From the NCBI RefSeq assembly GCF_053078305.1, contig NZ_CP166879.1: 64,000 nucleotides of DNA. One strand, 5' to 3'. How positions within the stretch are numbered: the stretch's first letter is position 1; each line of letters begins with the position of its first letter. A model generated the notes under the pieces. The model saw nothing but the letters and a program-made list of their open reading frames with translations. It was not told the origin of the DNA and did not search any database. Positions 1 through 15,674 of the stretch are shown one piece after another. A program made the position numbers and the translations under genes.

Positions 1-150
1 ACCCGTGGGGCCAATCAGTTTTACAGCGTCATGGAACGGCTGAAGATGCTCGATTCCCTGCAGGCAACACAGCTTCAGTCGGCCATTGTTAAAGCCATTT
101 ATGTCTATCATCTCCCCGTAGTTGTCCGCATCGTTCGCCAACTCCACTGA
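1..150 (+). CDS. B: phage portal protein (lambda gpB-like), upstream part; 5' partial at window edge and interrupted after codon at nt 96, then 18 foreign codons to a stop
   Basis: Frame 1 reads ...FYSVMERLKMLDSLQATQLQSAIVKA, continuous with MYAATIESELD at 11936; matches remembered lambda portal. Confidence 0.75.
   Translation, partial: TRGANQFYSVMERLKMLDSLQATQLQSAIVKAIYVYHLPVVVRIVRQLH
91..98. other. left junction core repeat AAAGCCAT (putative attL core; extended 12/13 match to nt 103)
   Basis: Identical 8-mer at 11930-11937 exactly where the portal reading frame is broken and resumed. Confidence 0.6.
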
Positions 151-227
151 AACCCTTGCTGCGGCTGGAATGTCGTTTTCCATACTTTTGATGACCGTTC
201 ATCACACTTCCAGGTTTTCGCGGTTTT

Positions 228-280
228 GTGTATTGCAATGTGTATTGCAAATTGGCGATCGGGATGGGTGTGTATTGCAA
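228..280 (+). repeat. three direct copies of GTGTATTGCAA upstream of int (putative arm-type recombinase binding sites)
   Basis: Copies at 228-238, 240-250, 270-280; two more copies at 11835-11857 near the right end. Confidence 0.55.
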
Positions 281-298
281 ATCTCTTGAGGGCTGTTA

Positions 299-1540
299 AT
301 GGCTATTGAAAACAAACTCAGTGACAAACTGTTAAAGAGTCTTGTCGGAAAACGGCAGGACAAACAAAAAACAATAGCGGATGGGCGCGGGTTGTCTGTG
401 CGTGTAAGCATGGTTGGGGGGATCAGCTTTGTTTTTTACTATCGTCTTGGTGGCAGGGAATCCCCTCCGGTATGGCTTACACTTGGGCGCTATCCTGATA
501 TGTCTCTTGCAACAGCCAGGCGCATGCGTGATCAGTGCCGTGAGTGGCTGGCTGAAAATCTGGACCCCCGCAGGCAAATAAAACTTGCCGCCGAAAAAAC
601 CATGCAACCAGTGACCGTAAGGGATGCGCTGTTTTACTGGTACGACAATCACGCCACAACAGCCAGAAAAGAGCATGAATATTTAATAAAACGATTTGAA
701 AAGCATATCTTCCCCTATATCGGTGATATGGCTATAGAACAGTGCAAATTACACACATGGCTTGCCGTCTTTGACAGGATCAAAAAAAATGCGCCTGTTA
801 TGTCTGGTGCAATTTTTCTTGATATCAAACAGGCGTTGCGTTTTTGTCGCGTCAGGCAATACATCGCGTGCGATCCCTTTGGCGATATTAACGTAAGTTA
901 TGTCGGGCGCTCATCCGGTATAAGGGATCGCGTTCTTAATATCAATGAAACAGCGGATGTATGGTCTTATGCTTACGGTAATAATTTGCTGACACTGTCA
1001 TCAATACATAACAGAAGAATAATGGTTATCTGCCTGGTGTTTGGTTGCCGTCAGCAGGAGGCGAGGTTATCCACATGGGACGAATGGGATTTAAAAAACT
1101 GGGTATGGACAGTCCCAAAAGAGCACAGCAAAAACAAGGAGGCCATAGTAAGGCCTGTTCCTGACGGCATAAAACAATGGCTCGTTAATCTTTACGCAGA
1201 AACAAAAAATCGCGGTTATGTTGTCGGTTGTGCTTTGCAAAGGGCGACAATAACAGGGGCTGCAAACAGAATATGCAGGCGTCTTGGTCATGATATTAAT
1301 GGCTTGTGGTGCATACATGATTTCAGGCGCACATTTTCCACTGCGCTTAATGATATGGGGGCGGATCCTTATATTGTCGAACTTCTTTTAGGTCATAAAG
1401 TGAAAGGGGTTGCCGGTGTTTACAATAAAAGCAGGCATATAAAGAAAAAACTTGAGGTGCTTAATATGTGGGTTAATTACCTTAATACGATAGCAGGATT
1501 TAACAACAACGTTATCGAGCTTAATAAAGAGGTGGTGTGA
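299..1540 (+). CDS. int: tyrosine-type site-specific integrase (P4-like family)
   Basis: 413 aa; N-terminal arm-binding-like region, C-terminal HDFRRT...LLGH...GVAGVY catalytic motifs; position at element end. Confidence 0.85.
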   Translation: MAIENKLSDKLLKSLVGKRQDKQKTIADGRGLSVRVSMVGGISFVFYYRLGGRESPPVWLTLGRYPDMSLATARRMRDQCREWLAENLDPRRQIKLAAEKTMQPVTVRDALFYWYDNHATTARKEHEYLIKRFEKHIFPYIGDMAIEQCKLHTWLAVFDRIKKNAPVMSGAIFLDIKQALRFCRVRQYIACDPFGDINVSYVGRSSGIRDRVLNINETADVWSYAYGNNLLTLSSIHNRRIMVICLVFGCRQQEARLSTWDEWDLKNWVWTVPKEHSKNKEAIVRPVPDGIKQWLVNLYAETKNRGYVVGCALQRATITGAANRICRRLGHDINGLWCIHDFRRTFSTALNDMGADPYIVELLLGHKVKGVAGVYNKSRHIKKKLEVLNMWVNYLNTIAGFNNNVIELNKEVV

Positions 1541-1541
1541 T

Positions 1542-1799
1542 ATGGCAATTTATTCTCTTGTTGATGAAAACGATTTGCGCACAATGAAGGACATTGATCG
1601 GTTCATTCGTGAAAAAGAGTGCATAGCACTTACCACGCTGGCAAACTCAACACGCTGGAAAATGGAGCAGGCAGGTAAATTCCCGCGACGTATCAAGATC
1701 GGTGAACGTGCGGCAGGGTATCGACTTTCAGAGGTTCAGGCATGGATCCGTGGTGAGTGGCATCCTGGATGGAAACCTGGAAAAACAAAACAGCAATAA
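1542..1799 (+). CDS. alpA: AlpA-family phage transcriptional regulator / excisionase-like HTH protein
   Basis: 85 aa, overlaps int stop, pattern typical of AlpA (CP4-57 regulatory protein) family. Confidence 0.7.
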   Translation: MAIYSLVDENDLRTMKDIDRFIREKECIALTTLANSTRWKMEQAGKFPRRIKIGERAAGYRLSEVQAWIRGEWHPGWKPGKTKQQ

Positions 1800-1853
1800 C
1801 CAGTAAATAACGCCCCTCATCAAGAGGGGTTTTTGTCTATAGGGTAAAACGCG

Positions 1854-2432
1854 ATGAATAAAAATATTGCCGTGACGGGCAAGGGGTACGCTCGTCCAGT
1901 GAAAAAATTCTGTGATATTCGTGATCTTGTCGTTCTGCGCTTTGATGGTGTGAGCGTTCGCGTGGTGTATGTGAACGGCGATCCGTGGTTTGTTGCCGTT
2001 GACGTGTGCGCTGCGCTGGAAATTGTTGATCACAAGGTTGCGTTACGCCGTCTCGATGATGATGAAAAGGGGGAGTGTTTAATACCCACCCCAGGTGGAA
2101 ATCAAACAATGCGAACGGTATGCGAGTCAGGGTTCTACAAACTAATCGCCAGAAGTCGGAAAGCTGTTACTCCTGGCACGTTCGCCCGTCGTTTCAGTAA
2201 CTGGGTATTCAGAAATGTGATACCAGGTATCAGAAAAACGGGGGCTTATGGTATCCCGTGGGGGGCATTACAGGATTTTTCCCGCCGTAAAGAGCAATAT
2301 CAAATAAGTGCCAGCGAGAAGGGGAGGGAGCTACAGGCATGTAAGCGCAAAAAACGTGAACTGGAGGAAGAAGAAAAAAGGCTGATACGTGAATATCAGC
2401 CTGAGTTTTACTTTGGTGAGCGTATTCAGTAA
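1854..2432 (+). CDS. Bro-N domain protein (phage antirepressor-like)
   Basis: 192 aa; N-terminal FDGVSVRVVYVNGDPWFVAVDVCAALEI resembles Bro-N/antirepressor domain. Confidence 0.55.
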   Translation: MNKNIAVTGKGYARPVKKFCDIRDLVVLRFDGVSVRVVYVNGDPWFVAVDVCAALEIVDHKVALRRLDDDEKGECLIPTPGGNQTMRTVCESGFYKLIARSRKAVTPGTFARRFSNWVFRNVIPGIRKTGAYGIPWGALQDFSRRKEQYQISASEKGRELQACKRKKRELEEEEKRLIREYQPEFYFGERIQ

Positions 2433-2770
2433 CCACACGCGGTGCTGATTATACGGTACATCGTGTTAACCGAGAAGCTACCCACCAGCAAGGCAAAATC
2501 TTCTGCTAAAAAATGACATATGGCCAGTCGTCCGGAAAGCATGAAATTTTACAAAAATGGAAAATGAAGATTTTTATTGTGCTGGTGGGTAAAAACAAAA
2601 AGCGCCCCGTTGCCGGAGCGCCCTTGTGAACAATTAACCTGCTGCGAAAAAATTGGATCAGTGCAGGGAAATTATATCAACTGTGTGAAGAAGCGCCACA
2701 ATTGCCAGTTTAGCTTTGCGGCGAACGCGTCAATAAAGAATATTCTTTCTTTAAATTCTGTTTGTGTATT

Positions 2771-2800
2771 TTTTCGTAGTTTTTCGTAGTTTTTCGTAAG
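2771..2800. repeat. tandem repeat TTTTTCGTAG x3
   Basis: Three perfect 10-bp units in the intergenic gap between convergent genes. Confidence 0.6.
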
Positions 2801-2895
2801 GAGAAAGAGCGGCGCGTATGCACCGCTAAGGAGTTTATTTTCATGACTTATGCAGCTTTCAATCTTAGCACCGCCGTAGCTGGTGGACAAGGCTA

Positions 2896-3123
2896 TCAGC
2901 CAGGCGGTCGGTTTTTAGTGGCTTTTAACCGCCGTGGGTATTTCTCGACAAAATCTTCAAGGGCAAATTTTTCTGGTGGCACTAAGCGCGGCGCTGGTGG
3001 TGGTATTTTTGTTCTGGTTAGTTCTTCCTCAAGTCTGGCGCAGGCTTCTAACTGCCTTTGCCGGATGATTTCATCATCTTGCGTTTGCGTGTCTTGTATT
3101 GGTGATAGTGTGTTGTTGGTCAT
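2896..3123 (-). CDS. hypothetical protein
   Basis: 75-aa ORF co-directional with RHH gene; preferred over overlapping low-complexity + strand ORF. Confidence 0.35.
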   Translation of the reverse strand: MTNNTLSPIQDTQTQDDEIIRQRQLEACARLEEELTRTKIPPPAPRLVPPEKFALEDFVEKYPRRLKATKNRPPG

Positions 3124-3180
3124 GATACTGCCCTGTAAAGCAATGCGCCGGAGTACCTCACGCCACGGCGCTGATAGTGA

Positions 3181-3486
3181 TTATTCTGATTCTTGGGTCT
3201 TGCGACGCTGGAGTTCTTCGCGTGCAACGGTGACAAGTTGCCCGATTTCTTCCGCTGCTTTGATGCCGATTTGTTCGACCTTAGCCAGAGCATCCAGTGA
3301 AGACACAAGGGGATTTTCTCCGCTGCCTTCTGCCTGGCGGCGGGCGATTTCACCGCGCATGGCGGTTACTATGAATCCGGCGTTGCTTTCACCGTCCAGT
3401 TTTACGGATTCCATGCCTTCAATAACATCATGCGGGATCCGAGCTGTCAGTGATTGTGATTTTGCGTTTTTTGAACCTGTAGCCAT
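3181..3486 (-). CDS. ribbon-helix-helix (CopG/Arc-like) DNA-binding protein, putative element repressor
   Basis: SLTARIPHDVIEGMESV beta-strand/helix pattern; ATG at 3486 with GAGAGGA RBS; divergent from rightward operon. Confidence 0.5.
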   Translation of the reverse strand: MATGSKNAKSQSLTARIPHDVIEGMESVKLDGESNAGFIVTAMRGEIARRQAEGSGENPLVSSLDALAKVEQIGIKAAEEIGQLVTVAREELQRRKTQESE

Positions 3487-3700
3487 CTGTAATCCTCTCA
3501 ATGAAAGTGTAAGACAATATACACATAAAAAGTCTTACATAAAAGCATTGACATGTAAGCCACCTATAAATAAAGTTACTTACACCTTGTTAATGCAAGG
3601 TGCAGAAACGACGAAACCCGGCAGTGCGCTAACACTAACCGGGCTTCTAACCACCAACGATAGAAAGCGTATCGAGGTAGCTATGAGAAATCATACCACA
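3487..3700. promoter_or_regulatory. divergent promoter/operator region with repeated TGTAAGACA / GTCTTACAT / ACATGTAAG motifs
   Basis: AT-rich intergenic region between leftward RHH gene and rightward operon, repeated half-sites. Confidence 0.45.
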
Positions 3701-4045
3701 CACCCGCAAGGGCGGGACTCGCACAACCTGAATAAATACATCTGGCGTTTTCTGGCCCGAAAAAACCAGTTGATCGCCAGTGTCGAAAATAGCTATGATT
3801 CCCGCGCACCTCATAAAACGGGTGCCGGGATTGGCGTCCTGGGCAAAACTGAAGCGCATAACACGCGCCCCGCGTGTTTTTTTGTGCCGCATAGTCACAC
3901 CTTATCAATGGTGGGCTGTACGGGGGCGGAGCAATCCGCGCCGGTTTCTTCAGTGTCCGGTTACGCCAACCCTGTACAGTCCGCCACCAGCGAAATTGGC
4001 GTTTCCGGTGGCGGTTATCTTAACCACACTGAGGAGGCTGCCAAC

Positions 4046-4237
4046 ATGGCTACTATCCCTACCCTTGTACATTCTCAAACCGCCTTTCTCTGGCGCTTTA
4101 TCATCTTTGGCGCGTCAGACCATCAAATCATCCACGTCACCGCCTGGACGGAACGCGAAGCGCGTAGCCGTTGCCCGTCCGGTTGTGTTGCTGTATTCGC
4201 CGCCCGTATTCGTCAGGAGGTGTGCCATGTGCAATAA
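4046..4237 (+). CDS. Icd-like small protein (P4 cell-division-inhibitor family), tentative
   Basis: 63 aa, GAGGAGG RBS at 4031-4037; resembles remembered Icd-like proteins of P4-type elements. Confidence 0.4.
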   Translation: MATIPTLVHSQTAFLWRFIIFGASDHQIIHVTAWTEREARSRCPSGCVAVFAARIRQEVCHVQ

Positions 4238-4484
4238 AACCACACCGGACGCAGCCGCCGCGCTCACTACACTGATGCACGCGCTGATTGATATTTCTGT
4301 TATTGCTGACAGGGCGCATAAGCACGCCACCAGTGAAACAGAATATGCCGGGGCTTTCGTTCCTCATTCGCTGGCGGTTATGCAACTTAGTGCTGATATG
4401 GCGCTGAATGAGGCCAAAGCTATCCTGATTTCTGATTGTGAAAATGGGGGGGGGTTATGCGTGATGATCGTTTTAATGCCCTGA
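4227..4484 (+). CDS. hypothetical protein
   Basis: ATG overlapping previous stop, CAGGAGG RBS; operon context. Confidence 0.45.
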   Translation: MCNKTTPDAAAALTTLMHALIDISVIADRAHKHATSETEYAGAFVPHSLAVMQLSADMALNEAKAILISDCENGGGLCVMIVLMP

Positions 4485-4678
4485 AACAGGAGTTTGATGG
4501 TGCGCCTGATGATGCAGGTGATGCGCTTTCGTCAATATCCGAACTGATAAGAGTGGCCTTTTTCTTACTTGGCACGAAAGAATATAAATCAACTGGAATA
4601 GACGTACTGAATATTACTGCTGATTATGCGGAATATATGGCAGAAGTGGATTTAAGAAAGATAACGGACAGGGGGTAA
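4457..4678 (+). CDS. hypothetical protein
   Basis: 73 aa, G-rich RBS upstream, overlaps previous gene end. Confidence 0.45.
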   Translation: MRDDRFNALKQEFDGAPDDAGDALSSISELIRVAFFLLGTKEYKSTGIDVLNITADYAEYMAEVDLRKITDRG

Positions 4679-4679
4679 T

Positions 4680-4913
4680 ATGCGTGATATTTACCACGAA
4701 ACAATAGACCGCGCATTTAGTGCCCTTGCTTACGCTGAAGGTATGTACGAAATATTGCAAATGTGTCTGGAAACATTTGGCGATAATGAGCGTGATGTAA
4801 AGAAGGCGCGGATTATTAAATCACTGATAACTCTCCTTGAACCTGTAATAACAGAGTTGCAGGAAATAGACTTATTGCACGACAGATATAACGAACAGCA
4901 CACCGGAGAATAA
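4680..4913 (+). CDS. hypothetical protein
   Basis: 77 aa, AGGGGG RBS, tightly packed operon. Confidence 0.45.
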   Translation: MRDIYHETIDRAFSALAYAEGMYEILQMCLETFGDNERDVKKARIIKSLITLLEPVITELQEIDLLHDRYNEQHTGE

Positions 4914-4918
4914 AAATA

Positions 4919-5218
4919 ATGAAACTTAAATATCCTGGCTTAACTGCCAGTGGCAACACTCACCCTAAATTTACGCGCGGTGATATTTACCGCGACCAGT
5001 ACGGCGGCACGGTAATGATTAAGGGCGTGGCGGGACGGTGCGTAACTTACCGCCGTGAAGGCTACGAATATGATTGCGTGATGCCTGTTTATCAGTTCCG
5101 GCGTGATTTTTCTCTGGTACAGACCGCGCCGCATAACGTGCCCACCAGCAACGCCAGGGCACGGGCAAACATCCAGAAGCTGAAAACCATGATTAACGGA
5201 TTCAGGGGTAAAAAATGA
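4919..5218 (+). CDS. hypothetical protein
   Basis: 99 aa, GGAG RBS, stop overlaps next start. Confidence 0.45.
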   Translation: MKLKYPGLTASGNTHPKFTRGDIYRDQYGGTVMIKGVAGRCVTYRREGYEYDCVMPVYQFRRDFSLVQTAPHNVPTSNARARANIQKLKTMINGFRGKK

Positions 5219-6624
5219 AACTGGCACCGAACGTAAAACGATTACCGAAAGATAAATACACCGAAGCGGTTATTTTTGCGGGTATTGATGCTCACTCATT
5301 CGCAGAGCATTACATCATTGCACAGGCCAAAAAAGCAGGCGATCCAGTCCCTCCCGTTTATCTGGGGCGTTATCAGTTAAGCGAACTGGATAACCTCCAG
5401 ATTGTTGATGATGGGCGATACAGGGCGACGGTGATACGCGCCGGAAATATTGAAGAGCCGCAGCTGTTAACCATCGCCACGAAACTGGCGAGCGCCGGAG
5501 TCCAGGAGGCGCGGCTACTTTCTGAAAATTTCGAATTGCTGGAGGAATGGAGCGACCAGCTTCCACGGCTTAGGGAGGCATGGGAACGCGGGGAAAGCCT
5601 GGTCATGAAAAAAATTCCCCAGCGAAAAACCACGCTACCGATGAGCGTTGGATCTACCGGATACGACACACAGCTTGATTACGTGGTAAAGGGGATTATT
5701 CCGGCATCGTCGCTTTGCAGCATATACGGGGCGAGCGGTTCCTATAAATCATTCCTTGCCGGATCGTGGGCGTGTCACGTTTCCACGGGCCGCCAGTGGG
5801 GAGGCCGCAGGGTGGCGCATGGCGCTGTTCTCTATGTGGTTGGTGAAGGCGGTATCGGCGTTCCGCGTCGTGTAAAAGCCTGGGAGGTTGTGCACGGTGA
5901 GCAGGTGAAAAATCTGTATCTGGTAAACCGTCCCATCTTTCCGGCTGTCCCGCTTGATGTTGATGAACTGGTTATTGCTGCCAGTCAGGTGGAGAGGGAA
6001 ACGGGTAAACCTGTTCGCATGATTATTCTGGACACGCTGGCGCGTTGCTTTGGCGGCAATGATGAAAATGACTCCCGCGACATGGGGGCATTTATCCGTG
6101 GTTGTGACGAGCTTAAACGGCGCACAGGGGCTACGGTGCTGGTGGTTCACCATTCCGGCAAGGATGAAACAAAGGGGGCGCGTGGTTCCAGTGCATTTCG
6201 TGCATCACTGGACGCTGAATACCGGATACGCAGGGAGGACGCAGGAAGCGAAGCGCTGGTTATCTCATGCACCAAAATGAAGGACGCGGAGGAACTCAAA
6301 GAGGCTGCCTATGATTTGCGGGTGGTGGAGCTTTTTACCGACGCTGACGGGGAGTTAATTACGTCGCTGGTGGTGGTGGATAAGCCGCGCCCTCCCGTTG
6401 AACTGGAGCGCATCGAGGAGGCAGGCAACAAGACGGAAAACCATACCGCGCTATGGGGGTGCATCCGTTCACGCACACAGAACGGCGACAAGTGCACGAT
6501 CCCGCTGTTACGTGACGATATGAAAAAGCTGGGGTATGACACAAAACACCTTAAACGATGGTTAGCCAAACTGGAAAAAGACGACGTGATCTACATTGAC
6601 GGTGATGATGTAGGACCACTGTAA
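5215..6624 (+). CDS. replication initiation protein, RecA-like ATPase (AAA_25/RepA-type) with C-terminal DNA-binding domain
   Basis: 469 aa; Walker A-like GASGSYKS, Walker B MIILD, LVVHHSGKD motif; iterons immediately downstream. Confidence 0.7.
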   Translation: MKLAPNVKRLPKDKYTEAVIFAGIDAHSFAEHYIIAQAKKAGDPVPPVYLGRYQLSELDNLQIVDDGRYRATVIRAGNIEEPQLLTIATKLASAGVQEARLLSENFELLEEWSDQLPRLREAWERGESLVMKKIPQRKTTLPMSVGSTGYDTQLDYVVKGIIPASSLCSIYGASGSYKSFLAGSWACHVSTGRQWGGRRVAHGAVLYVVGEGGIGVPRRVKAWEVVHGEQVKNLYLVNRPIFPAVPLDVDELVIAASQVERETGKPVRMIILDTLARCFGGNDENDSRDMGAFIRGCDELKRRTGATVLVVHHSGKDETKGARGSSAFRASLDAEYRIRREDAGSEALVISCTKMKDAEELKEAAYDLRVVELFTDADGELITSLVVVDKPRPPVELERIEEAGNKTENHTALWGCIRSRTQNGDKCTIPLLRDDMKKLGYDTKHLKRWLAKLEKDDVIYIDGDDVGPL

Positions 6625-6830
6625 AAAGTGGGCATTAAAAGTGGGAAAGGTGGGCGATTTAACGTAATTTTAACAAAATCACCCACTTTCCCACGTGTAT
6701 ATATCCCAAAAAGTGGGCACTAAAAAAATACCTATGAAACAAGATGATATAAATCCCAAACTTCCCACGTTGGACGAAGTGGGAAAACGTAAAAAGTGGG
6801 CGAAAAAAGTGGGTAGAGGTGGGCGAATGA
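6625..6830. repeat. iteron array, putative replication origin of the satellite
   Basis: About ten copies of AAGTGGG(C/A) / GGTGGGCGA in both orientations directly downstream of the rep gene. Confidence 0.7.
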
Positions 6831-7078
6831 CTCAAAAACACAGAGACAGAACAGAGCCAAAATATAAAGCGTTAGACATGACAGAGCACGCTTTAAAGGT
6901 GGCAATCAGGGTAATAGACCGCCACACGCGGGAAGGATACGCGAAGGAACATCCCGACCTGATAAGCGCATTCATGACCACAGCGGCGGCAAACTTTGCC
7001 ACGCTGACAGAACGGGAGATAGCCGAAGCGGAACAGGTAACAACCATCAACGTTAAAACCGGAGAGGTGGAATCATGA
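6827..7078 (+). CDS. hypothetical protein
   Basis: 83 aa from ATG at 6827 (upstream part of track ORF lies in the iterons). Confidence 0.45.
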   Translation: MTQKHRDRTEPKYKALDMTEHALKVAIRVIDRHTREGYAKEHPDLISAFMTTAAANFATLTEREIAEAEQVTTINVKTGEVES

Positions 7079-7485
7079 CAGCACAGATAGCCGCTTACGG
7101 GCGGCTGGTGGACGACCCGCAGGTAAAACAAACCAGCAAGGGCACACCGATGACGCTGGCGCGTATGGCGGTATCTCTGCCATGCAGCCAGGCACAGGAC
7201 GGGCAGGCTACGTTATGGCTATCAGTGATGGCATTTGGTAAGCAGGCCGACTTCCTGGCTAAACATCAAAAAGGCGATGTTGCCAGCGTATCCGGCACGA
7301 TGCAGGTAAGCCAGTGGACCAGACAGAACGGGGAAACGCGGCAGGGTTATCAGGTTATTGCAGACAGTGTAATCAGTGCCCGTGCTGCCCGTCCTGGCGG
7401 GAGCAGACGTACAACCACAGGCACACAGGGTAATCAGCCACCAGCGGGAGGCGATGACCCTTACGGTGACGGTATTCCGTTCTGA
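7075..7485 (+). CDS. ssb: single-stranded DNA-binding protein
   Basis: OB-fold pattern and acidic C-terminal tail DDPYGDGIPF typical of SSB. Confidence 0.75.
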   Translation: MTAQIAAYGRLVDDPQVKQTSKGTPMTLARMAVSLPCSQAQDGQATLWLSVMAFGKQADFLAKHQKGDVASVSGTMQVSQWTRQNGETRQGYQVIADSVISARAARPGGSRRTTTGTQGNQPPAGGDDPYGDGIPF

Positions 7486-7495
7486 GGGGGTGACG

Positions 7496-7768
7496 ATGGT
7501 ACATGACCGCATAGCGGAGGAACTCGAGGCAAAAGGCTTTTACCGGAGGGCGGCGGCGCGATGGGGTGAAGTTATGCAGCTGGTGGAGACAGACAAGGAA
7601 CGGCATCAGGTTACGATGCGACGGCTGGAATGTTCCAGGAAGGCACAGAGGCCACCGGAGCCGCCGGATAACTTCGGAGACCTGAAAAAAGCAGTAGATC
7701 GCACTTATGCCGAAATGGGTATGGATGGTGTAAGCGATGAAATATGGCGTAATTACCCAGACAGCTAA
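7496..7768 (+). CDS. PerC-family transcriptional regulator
   Basis: 90 aa; IAEELEAKGFYRRAAARW motif resembles PerC family. Confidence 0.5.
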   Translation: MVHDRIAEELEAKGFYRRAAARWGEVMQLVETDKERHQVTMRRLECSRKAQRPPEPPDNFGDLKKAVDRTYAEMGMDGVSDEIWRNYPDS

Positions 7769-7774
7769 TCAACA

Positions 7775-7796
7775 GCCGGAGAAATCCGGCTTTTTT
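7775..7796 (+). terminator. rho-independent terminator (GCCGGAGAAATCCGGC + T-run)
   Basis: Perfect hairpin then TTTTTT; identical hairpin recurs at 10049-10071. Confidence 0.65.
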
Positions 7797-8007
7797 GTAC
7801 CCAAAAAAAGCCCGATAAGTACAGGAGGCATCTTATCGGGCTTTTGCATATGAGGTTTTTTTGGTGCACTGACACACATGATCGGGGTAATCATTTCATA
7901 ATTTGCAACACAACTCAACATCATTGCACAAAATGCAATCCTGATTATAATCAGAGCTGGATGAACATCCAGTTCTGATTTTTTAAGTCAAAGAGGAATT
8001 TCTTACT

Positions 8008-8214
8008 ATGGCTGAAGAGAAAAAAGGCGGTGTTTCGGTGTACATAAGCCCCGAAATCGTGGAGGTGCTCAAGCAGCGCCACAAAAAAAACTATGAGGCT
8101 GGCGTAGCGGCTGGACTGGATCCGCTGATGACGCCGGAGCCGTCGATAGGTTCACTTGTGCGCTCTTATTTACTTGCGGCGCTTGGGATGCATAAAAATT
8201 ATGGTGGTGAATAA
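8008..8214 (+). CDS. hypothetical protein
   Basis: 68 aa, AAGAGG RBS, first gene of capsid operon. Confidence 0.45.
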   Translation: MAEEKKGGVSVYISPEIVEVLKQRHKKNYEAGVAAGLDPLMTPEPSIGSLVRSYLLAALGMHKNYGGE

Positions 8215-9269
8215 TGACAGTAAAAGCAATGGCACTTACAACTAACCAGCTTTTCGCGTACCTGAATCGCGGGGATATTGCAGAATTTAAATTCAGTCCG
8301 CTGTTTACCACGCTGTTTTTCCCGAACGTGGCGACCTTCAACACCCAGAACATCATGCTGGACACCCTGGACATTGAAGAGGTTACGATGTCAGCGTTCT
8401 GTTCGCCTATGGTGGGTAGTCAGGTCCAGCGCGATAAAGGGTACGAAACCAGCACGATTAAACCAGGCTACATGAAACCCAAACACGAAATCGATCCAAC
8501 AAAAACCATCATGCGCATGGCTGGAGAAGATCCGGCACAGCTTAACGACCCTACCTACCGCCGTATGCGCCTGATTACTGGCAACATGCGCCGCCAGATA
8601 AACGCCATTAAAGCGCGCGTGGAATGGCTGGCGGTGAATGCGATAACGACCGGAAAAAACATCATTGAGGGCGAAGGCATAGAACGCTATGAAATCGACT
8701 GGAAAATACCGGAAAACTGCATCATAGAGCAGGCCAAGGGTAAAAAATGGTCCGAGCATGATAAAGATATTTACGATCCAATCTATGACATCGAACTATA
8801 CGCAGATCAGGCAGGTTGCCCCGCCAACGTCATGATTATGGGCGCTGAGGTATGGCGCACGTTACGCAGCTTTAAAAAATTCCGCGAACTGTACGATCTT
8901 TCCCGTGGTTCAGAATCCGCCGCAGAACTGGCCTGTAAAAACCTGGGTGAAGTAGTGAGCTTTAAAGGCTATCTGGGCGATATTGCCCTTATCGTCTATT
9001 CCGGCAAATACACTGACAGCGACGGTACCGAAAAATATTTCCTTGAGCCTGATTTGCTGGTCCTGGGTAACACCAACAATAAAGGGCTGGTGGCCTATGG
9101 TGCGATTATGGATCAGGAAGCGGTAAGAACGGGCGCAACGCAAAACATGTTCTACCCGAAAAACTGGATTGAAGACGGCGATCCGGCGATTGAGTACGTT
9201 CAGACGCACAGCGCACCGCAGCCGGTACCGGCAGATATTCGCAAATTTGTTACCGTCAAAATTGCTTAA
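8214..9269 (+). CDS. major capsid protein, lambda gpE-like paralog encoded by the satellite
   Basis: 351 aa; clear similarity to helper E at 14646-15674 (PGYVKPKHE, EDPAQLNDP, VVSFKGY, VLGNT motifs). Confidence 0.85.
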   Translation: MTVKAMALTTNQLFAYLNRGDIAEFKFSPLFTTLFFPNVATFNTQNIMLDTLDIEEVTMSAFCSPMVGSQVQRDKGYETSTIKPGYMKPKHEIDPTKTIMRMAGEDPAQLNDPTYRRMRLITGNMRRQINAIKARVEWLAVNAITTGKNIIEGEGIERYEIDWKIPENCIIEQAKGKKWSEHDKDIYDPIYDIELYADQAGCPANVMIMGAEVWRTLRSFKKFRELYDLSRGSESAAELACKNLGEVVSFKGYLGDIALIVYSGKYTDSDGTEKYFLEPDLLVLGNTNNKGLVAYGAIMDQEAVRTGATQNMFYPKNWIEDGDPAIEYVQTHSAPQPVPADIRKFVTVKIA

Positions 9270-9280
9270 CGGGGGATTCT

Positions 9281-9616
9281 ATGGACACTCCATACATTGA
9301 GTTATTTGCAGGCAGTCAGCAGGTATCCACGACGCTGGTACATTTTGCCGCTGATGCTGGCGTTATTCAGGAATTTACCCCGCTGATGCTGGCGGACAAT
9401 GGCGAGTTTAAGCCGTGGGATGGTCAGGAATCTGGCAAGGCTGTTTATCTGACCTCGTACCCCGTGGACACGTCAAAGCAGAAATCAGCACAGTGTTACA
9501 AGACGGGGATATTTAATATCGCCGCCGTAAACTGGCCTGAGAGCGCCGACACTGACGCGAAAAAATGCGCCGCCTTTGCGGGTTCTGGCGTATCCGTTCA
9601 GCCGCTGGCGCGATAA
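9281..9616 (+). CDS. head decoration protein, lambda gpD-like paralog
   Basis: 111 aa; TPLMLA...WDGQ...YKSG/TGIF...WPES...AFAG pattern shared with helper D at 14241-14588. Confidence 0.75.
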   Translation: MDTPYIELFAGSQQVSTTLVHFAADAGVIQEFTPLMLADNGEFKPWDGQESGKAVYLTSYPVDTSKQKSAQCYKTGIFNIAAVNWPESADTDAKKCAAFAGSGVSVQPLAR

Positions 9617-9628
9617 GCAGGGGAAACG

Positions 9629-10042
9629 ATGGCAACGAATGAAAGCATCATGGCGCTACCGCTGGCGAGTAAATTTAAAGCAGAAGCGCGGGCAATGGCT
9701 GACAGAGGTTTATCAACCTACGAGGCCGTATATCAACTCAACAAACTGGAAGAGCAGGACAAGCCGCGCGCTGATGCGATTATGGCGCTTCATGAACATA
9801 ACGACTATCAGCCGCTGTTACGTGCAATGGCAAACGTGCCATGTATTAGCGTCGATAATGCTCGTGAAATCCTGAACATGACCATAGAGCAGGAGCGCCC
9901 AAAGGTTGCGCCGGAGCTTACCGCAGCCTTTGAAAACTTTATGGACATGCACAGCCCGAAAGCCGTATCACCCGGCATGGCATACGACGGCAGAAACCAG
10001 GGCGATGAAGGCGACGTCGATCGCATACTGAAAACCATCTGA
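9629..10042 (+). CDS. scaffold protein, Nu3-like (scaffold domain only, no protease domain)
   Basis: 137 aa; C-terminus AAFENFMDMHSPKAV...DEGDVD parallels helper C/Nu3 C-terminus ALFEHFMANHSPAAV...ADGDAD. Confidence 0.65.
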   Translation: MATNESIMALPLASKFKAEARAMADRGLSTYEAVYQLNKLEEQDKPRADAIMALHEHNDYQPLLRAMANVPCISVDNAREILNMTIEQERPKVAPELTAAFENFMDMHSPKAVSPGMAYDGRNQGDEGDVDRILKTI

Positions 10043-10048
10043 CATAAG

Positions 10049-10071
10049 GCCGGAGAAATCCGGCTTTTTTT
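10049..10071 (+). terminator. rho-independent terminator after capsid operon
   Basis: GCCGGAGAAATCCGGC hairpin followed by TTTTTTT. Confidence 0.65.
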
Positions 10072-10130
10072 ACGGGTCCTTTCCGGCATATGGACCCGTT
10101 ACGGGGCGGCGACCTCGCGGTTTTTCGCTA
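10072..10130 (+). other. cos site 1 (cosN GGGCGGCGACCT at 10104-10115 with cosQ-like and cosB-like flanks), rightward orientation
   Basis: Exact lambda 12-nt cohesive-end sequence and lambda-like flanks ACGGGTCCTTTCCGG...CGCGGTTTTTCGCTATTTATGA. Confidence 0.8.
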
Positions 10131-10248
10131 TTTATGAGCTTTTTTCGGGTGCTGGTGGTGGTTTTGTTGTTCGCTCTATCTCTATGAATAAAAAGGGAAA
10201 GATAAAACCAATACACCAACCTGAAACATTACTTAAGTGGGGATATTG

Positions 10249-10791
10249 ATGAAATCGCACCTGATGAACAAAAAAAACATGGCGCAAAGCTGCCGTGTAA
10301 GTGCGACAGCGTTCGACAAGTGGGGAGTGACTCCCGTTGAACGTAAAGGACGCGAGGCTTTTTACGATGTTGCCAGCGTGATAGACAATCGGGTAAGCAA
10401 TGCAATTAACCAGGTTACAAACGACAAAGGCGAGATTGATGATGATGAACTCTTACGAGTCAGGATCAGATTACTGACCGCCCAGGCTGAGGCGCAGGAA
10501 CTTAAAAACGAGCGCGATCGCGGTGACGTAATTGATACTGAGTTTTGCCTGTACGCGCTTTCAAAGCTGGCGAGTCAGATTTCTTCAATCATGGACAGTT
10601 TGCCGCTTACCATGCAAAGGCGCTTCCCGCAGATTACTCCCGCTATGCTGGATGGGCTTAAAAGGGAAGTGGTTAAAGCCTGTAATGCCAGTGCCACAGT
10701 TGCCGACAACCTCCCGAAGATACTGGCTGATTACCTGATGGAAACTACCGGAGACGTACCGGAGAAGTTGCTACAGAAGAAAGGCGAGTAA
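10249..10791 (+). CDS. terminase small subunit, lambda Nu1-like
   Basis: LTAQAEAQELKNERDRGDVIDTEFCLYALSKLASQISSIMDSLPLTMQRRFP parallels remembered lambda Nu1; start uncertain (10237/10249/10264). Confidence 0.75.
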   Translation: MKSHLMNKKNMAQSCRVSATAFDKWGVTPVERKGREAFYDVASVIDNRVSNAINQVTNDKGEIDDDELLRVRIRLLTAQAEAQELKNERDRGDVIDTEFCLYALSKLASQISSIMDSLPLTMQRRFPQITPAMLDGLKREVVKACNASATVADNLPKILADYLMETTGDVPEKLLQKKGE

Positions 10792-10962
10792 CAGACGCGC
10801 AATTATTGAACAAAAGTAAGGCCCGACATGAAATCACCCAAAAATGCCTTTTTCATGCGTTTGTATGTCTGACCTTTTACGGTTTCGATATTATAAAAAA
10901 CAAATAGTTACGCTCGAGAGGTACCGACACGCATTTTTCAGGAAAATTTTCATAAACAGATA

Positions 10963-11015
10963 AAAACCGCGAGGTCGCCGCCCCGTAACGGGCCATAATT
11001 CCAGGAAGGACCCGA
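10963..11015 (-). other. cos site 2 (cosN reverse complement at 10972-10983), inverted relative to cos site 1
   Basis: AGGTCGCCGCCC plus lambda-like flanks on the minus strand. Confidence 0.75.
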
Positions 11016-11047
11016 CGACACCAGGCTATCAGAACGATGAGGGCACA

Positions 11048-11329
11048 ATGACAGAAGCCGAACTACTGGGATTAATCCGCTACGTTACCGGAATCAGCCA
11101 GCAGCATGACGAACAGGCCACGCAGCCGGACAGCGTGACCGCTGAAAATTATGCGCGTGTTGTTGCTGAGGTGATGCGCCGTGATGGTATCCAGCTTAAT
11201 GATGCAGATATGCGCGACATACGGATCCGCGTTCTTGAAATGCTGGCCTACCGTCGCCGCGTGCAGACGTACAGGGAAAAAGCAAAAATAACGTACCAGT
11301 GGAAGAAGCCGGAGCGATTACGGCGGTAA
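11048..11329 (+). CDS. hypothetical protein
   Basis: 93-aa ORF, last gene before the right junction. Confidence 0.4.
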   Translation: MTEAELLGLIRYVTGISQQHDEQATQPDSVTAENYARVVAEVMRRDGIQLNDADMRDIRIRVLEMLAYRRRVQTYREKAKITYQWKKPERLRR

Positions 11330-11834
11330 CTTGCTGATATTCCCGATAACGCAAAATTGCGCTCTGTCCTAACCCGTTGATATTTTCGGGAACAGCCAAC
11401 GGCTGAGGCCGGAACAACGATTATCTTTCAGATAGTCAGAGCTACGAAATTTTCGTAGTTTAATTACTCGCCAGTTTATCGTTAACTCGTTGATATTTTC
11501 GGTAACCTCAATTTGAGGAGATCGGAAACATAACCCTTCACATTCTGAATGGTTATAATGACCACTCAGACCATCAAGGCAACCATAACGAACATCGTTA
11601 CGGTTGGAGCTTTTACCCCACTGGGGGGAAGGTGCACATCTGGATCATCATTACCGTGATCAAGGGTATGTAAAACCCACCAGCCTGATTAACTGTTAAC
11701 CGGAAAAAAGCCAGGTAGCCAATCTCGATATGGGGATCCCCATATCGACATTAACGCCCCCTAGAACTGCGCATATCTGCATATAAAAACATCCACCAGC
11801 TTTATGACGGATGCCGCTCATCTGATAAATAATC

Positions 11835-11857
11835 GTGTATTGCAATGTGTATTGCGA
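11835..11857 (+). repeat. two direct copies of GTGTATTGCAA/GTGTATTGCGA near right end (arm-type sites)
   Basis: Same motif as the triplet at 228-280. Confidence 0.55.
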
Positions 11858-11929
11858 CTCCTTTAAACGATAGGTTTGAGCATTCGTAATGTACTGTTTT
11901 TAAATTTTATTTTTTCCTGTCTTTTCATA

Positions 11930-11937
11930 AAAGCCAT
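11930..11937. other. right junction core repeat AAAGCCAT (putative attR core)
   Basis: Identical to 91-98; portal frame resumes here. Confidence 0.6.
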
Positions 11938-12709
11938 GTATGCAGCGACGATTGAAAGTGAACTTGATACCGAAAAGGCCTTTGAATATATCGCCGGTGC
12001 GCCGCAGGGGCAGAAGGATAATCCGCTTATTAATATTCTGGATAAGTTCTCCACCTGGTATGACACGAATATCGTGACGCTGGGCGGTGTCAAAATTCCG
12101 CACCTTTTCCCCGGTGATGATCTGAAACTTCAGACCGCGCAGGATTCAGACAATGGATTTTCGGCGCTTGAACAGGCGCTGCTGCGGTATATCGCCGCCG
12201 GTCTTGGCGTTTCCTACGAACAGTTGTCCCGTGATTACTCGAAGGTCAGTTATTCAAGTGCCCGCGCCTCCGCCAATGAGTCGTGGCGCTATTTTATGGG
12301 ACGACGAAAATTTATTGCAGCCCGGCTGGCCACGCAGATGTTTTCCTGCTGGCTGGAAGAGGCACTTCTTCGGGGGATTATCCGTCCGCCACGGGCACGT
12401 TTTGATTTTTATCAGGCGCGTTCAGCCTGGTCGCGGGCAGAGTGGATTGGCGCAGGAAGAATGGCCATTGACGGGCTCAAGGAGGTCCAGGAATCAGTGA
12501 TGCGCATTGAGGCCGGACTGAGCACGTATGAGAAAGAGCTGGCGCTGATGGGTGAGGATTATCAGGACATTTTCCGCCAGCAGGTCAGGGAATCCGCAGA
12601 GCGGGAAAAAGCCGGACTCTCACGTCCGGTGTGGATAGCGCAGGCGTATCAGCAGCAGATAGCAGAGAGCCGCAGGCCGGAAGAGGAGACAACACCACGT
12701 GAGACGTAA
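11930..12709 (+). CDS. B: phage portal protein (lambda gpB-like), downstream part resuming after the insertion
   Basis: KAMYAATIESELD...YIAAGLGVSYEQLSR...MAIDGLKEVQE resembles remembered lambda portal C-terminal half. Confidence 0.8.
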   Translation, partial: KAMYAATIESELDTEKAFEYIAGAPQGQKDNPLINILDKFSTWYDTNIVTLGGVKIPHLFPGDDLKLQTAQDSDNGFSALEQALLRYIAAGLGVSYEQLSRDYSKVSYSSARASANESWRYFMGRRKFIAARLATQMFSCWLEEALLRGIIRPPRARFDFYQARSAWSRAEWIGAGRMAIDGLKEVQESVMRIEAGLSTYEKELALMGEDYQDIFRQQVRESAEREKAGLSRPVWIAQAYQQQIAESRRPEEETTPRET

Positions 12710-14204
12710 TCTTTCACACATTATTGCCGCAGCATTCAATGAACCGCTGCTTCTGGAGCCCGCCTATGCGCGGGTTTTCTTTTGCGCGCTCGGGCGCGAG
12801 ATGGGGGCAGCAAGTCTTTCGTTACCACAACAGCAGGTACAGCTTGATGCTCCCGGGATGCTGGCTGAAACGGACGAGTACATGGCCGGAGGTAAACGAC
12901 CGGCCCGTGTTTACCGGGTGGTGAACGGTATTGCGGTACTGCCGGTGACCGGCACGCTGGTGCACCGGCTGGGTGGTATGCGGCCATTTTCCGGAATGAC
13001 AGGCTATGACGGCATTGTTGCCTGTCTTCAGCAGGCAATGGCGGACACCTCTGTCCGGGGCGTACTGCTGGATATTGACAGTCCGGGCGGGCAGGCCGCC
13101 GGTGCGTTTGACTGCGCTGACATGATTTACCGCCTCCGGCAGCAGAAGCCGGTCTGGGCACTGTGTAATGACACGGCCTGTTCTGCGGCCATGCTGCTGG
13201 CGTCGGCCTGCTCCCGACGGCTGGTTACCCAGACATCCCGTATCGGCTCCATTGGCGTGATGATGGGCCATGTCAGCTATGCCGGTCATCTGGCGCAGGC
13301 CGGAGTGGATATCACGCTGATTTATGCCGGGGCGCATAAGGTGGATGGCAATCAGTTTGAAGCGTTGCCGTCAGAGGTTCGCCAGGACATGCAGCAGCGG
13401 ATTGATGCGGCGCGCCGGATGTTTGCCGAAAAAGTGGCGATGTATACGGGGCTGTCTGTGGAAGCTGTCACGGGGACAGAGGCTGCCGTTTTTGAAGGTC
13501 AGTCCGGTATTGAAGCCGGGCTGGCGGATGAATTAATCAATGCGTCGGATGCCATCAGTGTGATGGCTGCGGCGTTGAACACACATGATACAGGAGGCAC
13601 TATGCCGCAATTAACTGCAACGGAAGCCGCCGCGCAGGAGAACCAGCGAGTGATGGGGATCCTGACGTGTCAGGAAGCGAAAGGACGTGAACAGCTTGCC
13701 ACGATGCTGGCAGGACAACAGGGCATGAGCGTTGAACAGGCCCGGGCGATTCTGGCCGCGGCGGCACCACAGCAGCCGGTGGCATCCGCGCAGAGTGAAG
13801 CCGATCGCATTATGGCGTGTGAAGAAGCTAAAGGTCGTGAACAACTGGCGGCAACGCTGGCGGCGATGCCGGATATGACGGTGGAAAAAGCCCGCCCGAT
13901 CCTGGCGGCTTCACCGCAGGTGGATGCCGGCCCCTCACTCCGTGATCAGATTATGGCTCTGGATGAGGCAAAAGGGGCTGAGGCGCAGGCTGAACAGCTG
14001 GCTGCCTGCCCGGGAATGACAGTGGAGAGCGCCCGGGCTGTGCTGGCTGCGGGATCAGGTAAGGCAGAACCGGTTTCTGCATCAACAACCGCCCTGTTTG
14101 AACATTTCATGGCGAACCATTCACCGGCAGCCGTGCAGGGTGGCGTGTCACAGACGTCGGCAGACGGTGATGCGGACGTGAAAATGCTCATGGCCATGCC
14201 ATGA
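12699..14204 (+). CDS. C: prohead protease (S49/ClpP-like, lambda gpC) with nested in-frame scaffold (Nu3) region
   Basis: 501 aa; peptidase region then three ~40-aa scaffold-like repeats and a C-terminus similar to the satellite Nu3-like protein. Confidence 0.8.
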   Translation: MRRNLSHIIAAAFNEPLLLEPAYARVFFCALGREMGAASLSLPQQQVQLDAPGMLAETDEYMAGGKRPARVYRVVNGIAVLPVTGTLVHRLGGMRPFSGMTGYDGIVACLQQAMADTSVRGVLLDIDSPGGQAAGAFDCADMIYRLRQQKPVWALCNDTACSAAMLLASACSRRLVTQTSRIGSIGVMMGHVSYAGHLAQAGVDITLIYAGAHKVDGNQFEALPSEVRQDMQQRIDAARRMFAEKVAMYTGLSVEAVTGTEAAVFEGQSGIEAGLADELINASDAISVMAAALNTHDTGGTMPQLTATEAAAQENQRVMGILTCQEAKGREQLATMLAGQQGMSVEQARAILAAAAPQQPVASAQSEADRIMACEEAKGREQLAATLAAMPDMTVEKARPILAASPQVDAGPSLRDQIMALDEAKGAEAQAEQLAACPGMTVESARAVLAAGSGKAEPVSASTTALFEHFMANHSPAAVQGGVSQTSADGDADVKMLMAMP

Positions 14205-14240: not shown

Positions 14241-14588
14241 ATGGTAACGAAAACCATCACTGAACAACGTGCGGAAGTACGTATTTTTGCCGGTAATGAT
14301 CCGGCTCATACCGCCACAGGCAGCAGCGGGATTTCTCAGGCAACACCGGCACTGACGCCCCTGATGCTGGATGAAGCCAGCGGGAAACTGGTGGTCTGGG
14401 ACGGACAGAAAGCCGGTAATGCGGCTGGCATACTGGTACTGCCGCTTGAAGGCACAGAGACGGTGCTGACGTATTACAAGTCGGGGACCTTTGCGACGGA
14501 GGCAATCCGCTGGCCTGAAAGTGTGGATGAACACAAAAAGGCCAACGCCTTTGTCGGCACAGCCCTGAGTCACGCGGCGCTGCCGTAA
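14241..14588 (+). CDS. D: head decoration protein gpD
   Basis: 115 aa; close to remembered lambda D (DPAHTATG, TPLMLD, YKSGTF, WPE). Confidence 0.85.
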   Translation: MVTKTITEQRAEVRIFAGNDPAHTATGSSGISQATPALTPLMLDEASGKLVVWDGQKAGNAAGILVLPLEGTETVLTYYKSGTFATEAIRWPESVDEHKKANAFVGTALSHAALP

Positions 14589-14645: not shown

Positions 14646-15674
14646 ATGGGATTGTTTACGACCCGCCAGTTACTCGGTTATACCGAACAAAAAGTGAAAT
14701 TTCGTGCGCTGTTTCTGGAGCTGTTTTTCCGCCGTACGGTGAATTTCCACACCGAAGAGGTGATGCTGGATAAAATTACCGGAAAAACGCCGGTGGCAGC
14801 CTATGTCTCCCCGGTTGTTGAAGGAAAAGTGCTGCGTCATCGTGGTGGTGAAACCCGCGTGTTGCGTCCGGGCTACGTCAAGCCGAAACACGAATTTAAT
14901 TACCAGCAGGCGGTGGAGCGCCTTCCCGGTGAAGATCCGGCGCAACTGAACGACCCGGCCTACCGTCGTCTGCGTATCATCACTGATAACCTCAAACAGG
15001 AAGAGCATGCCATTGTCCAGGTGGAGGAAATGCAGGCGGTGAATGCCGTGCTGTATGGCAAATACACCATGGAAGGGGAGCAGTTTGATACTGTCGAGGT
15101 GGATTTCGGGCGCTCTGAAGGAAATAACATTGAGCAGGCTGACGGTAAAAAATGGTCTGAGCAGGACCGTGATACGTTTGATCCGACGCATGATATTGAC
15201 CTCTACTGCGATCAGGCCAGCGGTCTTGTGAATATCGCCATTATGGACGGTACGGTCTGGCGTCTGCTGAATGGCTTTAAGTTGTTCCGCGAAAAACTGG
15301 ATGCCCGTCGCGGCTCAAATTCACAACTCGAAACAGCAGTGAAAGACCTGGGGTCGGTGGTGTCCTTCAAGGGGTATTACGGCGATCTGGCCATTGTGGT
15401 GGCGAAAACGTCTTATGTGGCAGAGGACGGTACCGAAAAACGTTATCTGCCGGAGGGCACGCTGGTCCTGGGAAATACGTCAGCGGAGGGCATCCGTTGC
15501 TATGGTGCCATTCAGGATGCGCAGGCGTTGTCCGAAGGTGTGGTGGCCTCTTCCCGTTATCCGAAACACTGGATGACCGTGGGCGATCCGGCCCGTGAAT
15601 TCACCATGACGCAGTCCGCGCCGCTGATGGTGCTGCCGGATCCGGATGAGTTTGTGGTGGTACAGGTGAAATAA
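14646..15674 (+). CDS. E: major capsid protein gpE
   Basis: 342 aa; high similarity to remembered lambda E. Confidence 0.9.
   Translation: MGLFTTRQLLGYTEQKVKFRALFLELFFRRTVNFHTEEVMLDKITGKTPVAAYVSPVVEGKVLRHRGGETRVLRPGYVKPKHEFNYQQAVERLPGEDPAQLNDPAYRRLRIITDNLKQEEHAIVQVEEMQAVNAVLYGKYTMEGEQFDTVEVDFGRSEGNNIEQADGKKWSEQDRDTFDPTHDIDLYCDQASGLVNIAIMDGTVWRLLNGFKLFREKLDARRGSNSQLETAVKDLGSVVSFKGYYGDLAIVVAKTSYVAEDGTEKRYLPEGTLVLGNTSAEGIRCYGAIQDAQALSEGVVASSRYPKHWMTVGDPAREFTMTQSAPLMVLPDPDEFVVVQVK

Follow-up and report, generated by a model that had tools for sequence, protein, structure and literature searches.

Three Tandem Units in the Scaffold Part of a Phage 21-Type Prohead Protease Gene Correspond to the Tri Boxes of Phage 21 and Vary in Number Among Relatives

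Introduction

The DNA analyzed here (referred to throughout as the window, with positions counted from its first letter) is a stretch of 64,000 nucleotides from contig NZ_CP166879.1 of NCBI RefSeq assembly GCF_053078305.1. It includes head genes of a phage 21-like prophage, among them a prohead protease/scaffold gene of the lambda gpC/Nu3 type in which a unit of approximately 40 residues occurs three times in tandem. An original prediction, made from the sequence of the window without database searches, had noted these repeats at 13650-14040, had recognized one related unit in a scaffold-like protein of a neighboring satellite element, and had suggested that the number of repeats could adjust the length of the scaffold and, with it, the size of the capsid. 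The gene and its parts are as follows (lengths in amino acids, aa; model confidence as the predicted local distance difference test, pLDDT):

12699-14204, + strand: gpC-like prohead protease/scaffold gene of the phage 21 gene 5 type (501-aa open reading frame, GTG start)
13134-13577, + strand: Peptidase_S49 domain, residues 146-293 (Pfam PF01343, E = 7.6e-35)
13592-13597, + strand: AGGAGG, ribosome-binding site of the internal start (read from the sequence; ribosome-binding site of gene 6 in both phage 21 records)
13602-14204, + strand: nested in-frame Nu3-like scaffold open reading frame of the phage 21 gene 6 type, 200 aa (in-frame ATG at 13602)
13638-13772, + strand: repeat unit 1 (Tri1 box) with an N-terminal RVMGIL extension (unit-profile match, Nu3 residues 13-57)
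13797-13916, + strand: repeat unit 2 (Tri box; unit-profile match, Nu3 residues 66-105)
13938-14060, + strand: repeat unit 3 (Tri3 box; unit-profile match from Nu3 residue 113)
14079-14120, + strand: conserved tail helix TTALFEHFMANHSP, following unit 3 (modeled as residues 160-173 in the full AlphaFold model and as 51-63 in the model of unit 3 plus tail)
14121-14201, + strand: disordered acidic stretch and hydrophobic C-terminus (…DGDADVKMLMAMP; pLDDT below 55)

Results

The S49 (SppA-like) domain lies within the N-terminal two thirds of the 501-aa protein, as in lambda-type gpC/Nu3 genes, and a sequence search of the PDB relates this part to the SppA structures 3rst and 4kwb. The 200-aa scaffold reading frame matches phrog_53, phrog_8399, and phrog_1999. 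Its internal coding sequence is annotated in phage 21 as AAA32344.1 and UMO75421.1 (records M81255.1 and OL657228.1, respectively), and a nested start is annotated in lambda as well. The predicted free scaffold is the same sequence as the C-terminus of the protease, read from an internal start with its own ribosome-binding site. All three units lie downstream of the ATG at 13602, within the scaffold protein, so that the protease and the free scaffold would both carry all three.

The internal repetition is evident in a self-dot-plot of the 501-aa protein (20-residue windows), where the top diagonal scores 67; shuffled sequences reached at most 41 (whole protein, 300 shuffles) and 53 (the alanine-rich scaffold part by itself, 500 shuffles). 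The 77 matches scoring at least 40 all fall at offsets of 50, 47, and 97 residues between residues 311 and 461; the repeat period is 47-50 residues and the conserved core comprises approximately 38-41. Pairwise BLASTP comparison of the units (R1 to R3) gives 63% identity between R1 and R2 over 38 residues (E = 2e-13), 64% between R2 and R3 over 36 residues (E = 8e-10), and 56% between R1 and R3 over 34 residues (E = 2e-6). The original prediction of three tandem repeats, and their placement in the Nu3-like scaffold portion of a protease/scaffold gene of the lambda type, is borne out by these results, with the dot-plot far above the shuffles; the predicted span is essentially right and clips only the last few residues of unit 3. 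In the DNA comparison that was also proposed, units 1 and 2 are recognizable (70% identity over 97 nt, at a spacing of 150) and the other pairs are not, and Tandem Repeats Finder run on the DNA reported no repeats. The faded DNA similarity and this empty result suggest that the duplication is old and that the repeat is now visible mainly in the protein.

These three repeats have been recorded before. Gene 6 in GenBank record M81255.1 (phage 21 head operon) carries three repeat_region features named "Tri1 box," "Tri box," and "Tri3 box," all of them marked there as "function unknown; putative," and through alignment these boxes map to window positions 13669-13772, 13809-13919, and 13950-14063, respectively. 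Judged by this alignment, the repeats are the already known Tri boxes of phage 21 gene 6. We take M81255.1 to be the record of Smith & Feiss (Gene, 1993), presumably dating to the early 1990s. Phage 21 genes 5/6 share 96% DNA identity with the window across the whole gene, and phage 21 gp5 differs from the window protein at 20 of 501 residues. A literature search for the phage 21 repeats or for domain mapping of Nu3 found nothing accessible beyond a lambda interaction map. NCBIfam holds no model for the scaffold protein of the prophage (the helper, with respect to the satellite described below) or for that of the satellite, and Pfam holds none for the repeat unit.

To place the unit among its relatives, a 41-position profile was searched against 1.84 billion representative proteins, and it matched 1037 representative clusters at E ≤ 1e-3. 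In the best 150 of these 1037 clusters, a list biased towards many-unit proteins, the unit occurs once in 135, twice in 10, and three times in 3. With 135 of 150 carrying one copy, a single unit appears to be the rule and the triple a feature of one enterobacterial phage group. In the long proteins among these 150 clusters the unit ends at a median of 49 residues before the C-terminus, and Peptidase_S49 is present in 10 of 10 long unit-bearing proteins sampled. Only one unit (ENSRIMGILNCEEAHGREEQARVLAETPGMTVKTARRILAAAPQ) occurs in lambda gpC/Nu3 itself, and the tail that comes after it is similar in pattern. Repeat number does vary among the lambda-family C genes, whose comparison had been proposed along with the prediction, and one copy is the norm.

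Closer relatives were collected by a whole-protein search, which replaced a scaffold-only search that gave mostly gene fragments. Fifteen three-unit proteins, 47-92% identical to that of the window, have orthologous units that are 73/65/61% identical and paralogous units that are 51-56% identical. The greater similarity of orthologous units implies that the triplication predates the divergence of these 15 proteins and was kept.

Copy number is more variable in prophages of E. coli, where relatives 80-96% identical to the window protein carry 2, 2.5, or 4 units. The 4-unit allele has 551 aa, the 2-unit alleles have 451-452 aa with at least three different in-register joints, and the commonest, a 2.5-unit allele of 482 aa (P0265), is indexed in 3592 blocks of the collection. 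The varied copy numbers and in-register joints point to unequal recombination between units. All of the isolated phage records of the phage 21-type group in the phage collection, approximately 20, have three units, and the P0265 allele was not found among the matched isolated phage records. At loci L007 and L008, P0265 is without the second half of unit 2, and the called genes of the head modules look complete. Two further variants, each a single sequence that may be an artefact of assembly or recombination, were also seen: P0236 (657 aa), in which an internal duplication of the protease end and units gives 5.5 units, and P0060 (174 aa), in which an unrelated N-terminal segment is joined to unit 3 and the tail.

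In an AlphaFold model of the whole scaffold built on a 15-sequence alignment, the helical units reach a pLDDT of 72-83, the linkers score poorly, and the predicted template modeling score (pTM) is 0.28; the low pTM and poor linkers suggest no fixed arrangement between units. A model of unit 3 plus tail built on 43 diverse sequences gives unit 3 as a compact three-helix mini-domain (pLDDT of about 90), after which come a flexible linker, an amphipathic helix ALFEHFMANHSP (pLDDT of about 65), and a disordered end. Each unit is accordingly modeled as an independent three-helix mini-domain, with flexible linkers between the predicted domains. The methionine of the tail helix is invariant across the 43 diverse relatives, and in distant phages the unit is well conserved and the tail variable. 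The C-terminal pattern is common to the window scaffold, lambda (…DAVNDLLNTPV), and the satellite protein (…GDVDRILKTI), in which the tail helix is also present. A nine-residue match, AKGREALAE, in PDB entry 9hqv (Toxoplasma mitoribosome) was set aside as due to chance.

The order of the neighboring genes fits the lambda type, with the remainder of the portal gene at 11930-12709 followed by C (12699-14204), a D-like gene (14241-14588), and an E-like gene (14646-15674). In phage 21 record OL657228.1 (locus L002), two cII binding sites lie inside gene 6 on the opposite strand, at 2409-2422 and 2643-2656; they correspond to window positions 13607-13620 and 13841-13854 and are matches to a consensus pattern only.

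Inside the portal gene (B) of the prophage, and in the same orientation, lies a satellite of approximately 11.8 kb of the phage-inducible chromosomal island (PICI) type, at window positions 91-11942. In an intact relative (L004), the portal sequence matching positions 1-103 and that matching 11930 onward are contiguous, and 13-bp repeats flank the satellite, AAAGCCATTTATG at 91-103 and AAAGCCATGTATG at 11930-11942. Its + strand genes are int, alpA, an antirepressor-like gene, a primase/helicase-like gene (pri), ssb, and E-like, D-like, Nu3-like, and Nu1-like genes, and its integrase has Pfam tyrosine-integrase domains. Read from its sequence, the element is a PICI of the helper-embedded type (HE-PICI) in gene B, which is a known kind (PMC10111431) and has gene B among its main reported integration sites (PMC10111431). 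The words Nu3, scaffold, and decoration are absent from the main text of that paper. The right-hand junction of the satellite is found at a query coverage of at least 80% in only 3 of 5426 complete E. coli genomes. Two stretches, 10069-10149 and 10941-10989 (the second match on the opposite strand), flank the satellite Nu1-like gene at 10237-10791 and resemble, with 81% and 92% identity, respectively, the sequence that lies immediately upstream of Nu1 where phage 21-like prophages are intact; the satellite probably carries them as cos-type packaging sequences.

The scaffold-like protein of the satellite is encoded as follows:

9629-10042, + strand: satellite Nu3-like protein, 137 aa, with two degenerate units and a helper-like tail (BLASTP, phrog_1999)

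This protein is 35% identical to the helper Nu3 over 83 residues spanning unit 3 and the tail helix (BLASTP, E = 4e-10), and phrog_1999, a family of unknown function, covers it entirely (E = 6.7e-62). Natural 93-aa variants (P0382, P0385, and P0386) are in-register fusions of satellite units 1 and 2, which indicates that the satellite protein has two degenerate units, and the recombination behind these variants is the process seen in the helper gene. The EAKGRE motif is lost in both satellite units. The proposal of a neighboring satellite with a related scaffold-like protein and a similar C-terminal tail holds up well, and only its count of one related unit has to be raised to two degenerate ones. 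The name given to the protein by NCBI is "phage head-tail connector protein."

Discussion

It seems quite likely to us that the repeats, i.e., the Tri boxes, are an old triplication of a core module of Nu3 scaffolds of approximately 40 aa, carried within a nested protease/scaffold gene, and that this module makes protein contacts that its three copies render multivalent. The full-length product (gp5/gpC type) would be an S49 prohead protease with the scaffold domain as its C-terminal third, and the internal start at 13602 would make the free scaffold (gp6/Nu3 type). The units would fold separately, as beads on a string, with linkers rich in Pro, Gln, and Ala. If the scaffold makes its protein-protein contacts through the unit, having three of them on flexible linkers would render the scaffold and protease tether within the procapsid both longer and multivalent. 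The tail is likely to dock onto the capsid protein, as the C-terminal ends of other scaffolds do (PMC6893505), and the S49 protease would then degrade the scaffold; copy number would shift by in-register unequal recombination between units. This seems reasonable in view of lambda, where Nu3 is reported to interact with itself, protease C, portal B, and capsid protein E (PMC3224144), and where the scaffold is needed for procapsid assembly and removed by protease C, Nu3 being essential (PMC3224144, PMC10695390). The match to the Tri boxes, the nested gene, the wide occurrence of the unit, its variable copy number, and the predicted fold come from the analysis itself; the binding partner of the unit and the benefit of three copies are the parts that we infer.

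Several points weigh against this interpretation. In the PDB, sequence queries with the full-length protein, with the profile of the unit, and with one unit by itself hit no chain related in sequence to the unit, the only matches being those of SppA/ClpP to the protease part. Fold matches to the unit model are weak and generic, and the arrangement between units is without a confident prediction, as the pTM given above makes clear. The unit is also far more conserved than the tail, so that its partner could be the S49 domain or the portal, not the capsid protein. The alleles with 2, 2.5, and 4 units have been seen only in prophages, which may or may not be viable, and a two-unit allele from O157:H7 was dropped as evidence of tolerance because its prophages have a capsid gene cut down to 88 aa; the alleles thus suggest, but do not prove, that changes in copy number are tolerated.

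The extra units may instead be functionless duplicates that are merely tolerated, gained and lost by unequal recombination in an alanine-rich flexible region. In favor of such neutral expansion, one unit suffices for most relatives, head modules that are near-identical differ in copy number and show several independent recombination joints, and half of unit 2 is deleted in the commonest E. coli allele. Such an origin seems unlikely, however, since the three units keep their own identity even across proteins that are 47-60% identical (orthologous units at 61-73% remaining closer than paralogous ones), since each of the three has many invariant positions, and since the isolated, propagated phages of the group in the phage collection uniformly have three.

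Another possibility is that the unit mainly serves the S49 protease, through docking, recognition, or the organization of cleavage, in which case three units would mean more such sites and not more capsid contacts. The presence of Peptidase_S49 in all of the long unit-bearing proteins sampled speaks for this role, but such co-occurrence is expected anyway when the scaffold reading frame is nested in the protease gene. Also in its favor are the much stronger conservation of the unit than of the tail in distant phages, the C-Nu3 interaction and the degradation of Nu3 by C reported for lambda (PMC3224144), and the loss of the EAKGRE motif from the units of the satellite, which has no protease gene. 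The proposal is compatible with, and does not exclude, a multivalent scaffold. We consider it rather improbable as the main role of the unit, and the tight association with S49 proteases may reflect a role in protease docking or cleavage.

The suggestion that unit number sets scaffold length and hence capsid size or triangulation (T) number, with a shorter satellite scaffold redirecting assembly to smaller heads, has in its favor that scaffolds set capsid size elsewhere; SaPI1 CpmB, for example, has a C-terminal capsid-binding motif in common with the scaffold of its helper and converts T=7 into T=4 (PMC6893505). The satellite protein in the window has the tail of its helper and is shorter (137 aa vs. 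200 aa). Against this, lambda with one unit (48.5 kb) and the isolated three-unit phages of the phage 21 type (42.9-54.4 kb) fall in one genome size class. The 2-, 2.5-, and 4-unit alleles each adjoin a capsid protein of 342 aa, the same length as that of the window and 93.3-93.6% identical to it, which is as close as the capsid protein of phage 21 itself, so that alleles of 2, 2.5, 3, and 4 units pair with much the same capsid protein. These head modules also have a decoration protein of 115 aa, and their called genes from terminase through tail look complete. The related satellite EcCICFT073, which has capsid and decoration genes, packaged only phage-sized DNA, and its interference was unaffected by deletion of its capsid or decoration genes (PMC6092414, PMC6893505). 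Neither the genome sizes nor the capsid proteins beside the varied alleles support the proposed tuning, no link between unit number and head size is apparent in the sequence comparisons available, and we regard this explanation as very improbable.

A further idea, which we hold to be doubtful, is that the 137-aa satellite protein is a working scaffold that competes with the protease-linked scaffold of the helper for docking on the capsid protein or assembles the E-like and D-like products of the satellite, with unit copy number in the scaffolds of helper and satellite as part of an arms race over valency. If true, an embedded PICI whose helper is of the phage 21 type would come to control how heads are assembled; tests so far have had lambda as the helper.

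As a discovery the repeats matter little, since they are already annotated as Tri boxes in the GenBank record of phage 21. The additions made here are modest: S49-linked scaffolds in more than 1000 protein clusters have this unit as their conserved core, a single copy is usual whereas the triple is an old feature of one enterobacterial phage group, and the satellite carries a diverged two-unit version. In addition, the natural alleles with two to four units beside near-identical capsid proteins constitute a ready-made series on scaffold valency. The remaining value lies in the role of the unit, which is open to direct test with the natural 1- to 4-unit alleles.

Comparison With Known Systems

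The closest known counterpart is the phage 21 gene pair 5/6, which, beyond its 96% DNA identity, has the same nested internal start and three repeat_region features at equal positions, and differs within the gene by point differences only. Unlike phage 21, the prophage in the window is interrupted, in the portal gene by the satellite and in gene Z by a Mu-like prophage. Lambda gpC/gpNu3 is alike in gene position (portal, C/Nu3, D, E), in its S49 domain and nested scaffold reading frame, and in the pattern of unit and tail, and its first 300 aa (N-terminal region and protease) are 61% identical to the window protein; it is unlike in having one unit, preceded by a longer stretch to which nothing in the window protein corresponds.

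The satellite resembles the HE-PICIs described previously (PMC10111431) in having int, alpA, and pri together with capsid E-, D-, and Nu1-like genes, and in being inserted into one of the late genes of a lambdoid prophage (portal B), with matching orientation and an att-type repeat. Its 137-aa protein can also be compared with SaPI1 CpmB and the scaffold of 80-alpha, as each is a small helical scaffold-like satellite protein with a C-terminal part resembling that of the helper scaffold (PMC6893505), a resemblance that in the window is read from the alignment of unit 3 and the tail helix. The two differ in that there is no sequence relationship between them, in that the satellite of the window also has its own capsid and decoration genes, and in that the related EcCICFT073 showed no small capsids (PMC6092414). 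Given the phage-sized DNA of EcCICFT073 and its gene deletions without effect, a size-redirecting role like that of CpmB is possible but unlikely for the satellite protein described here.
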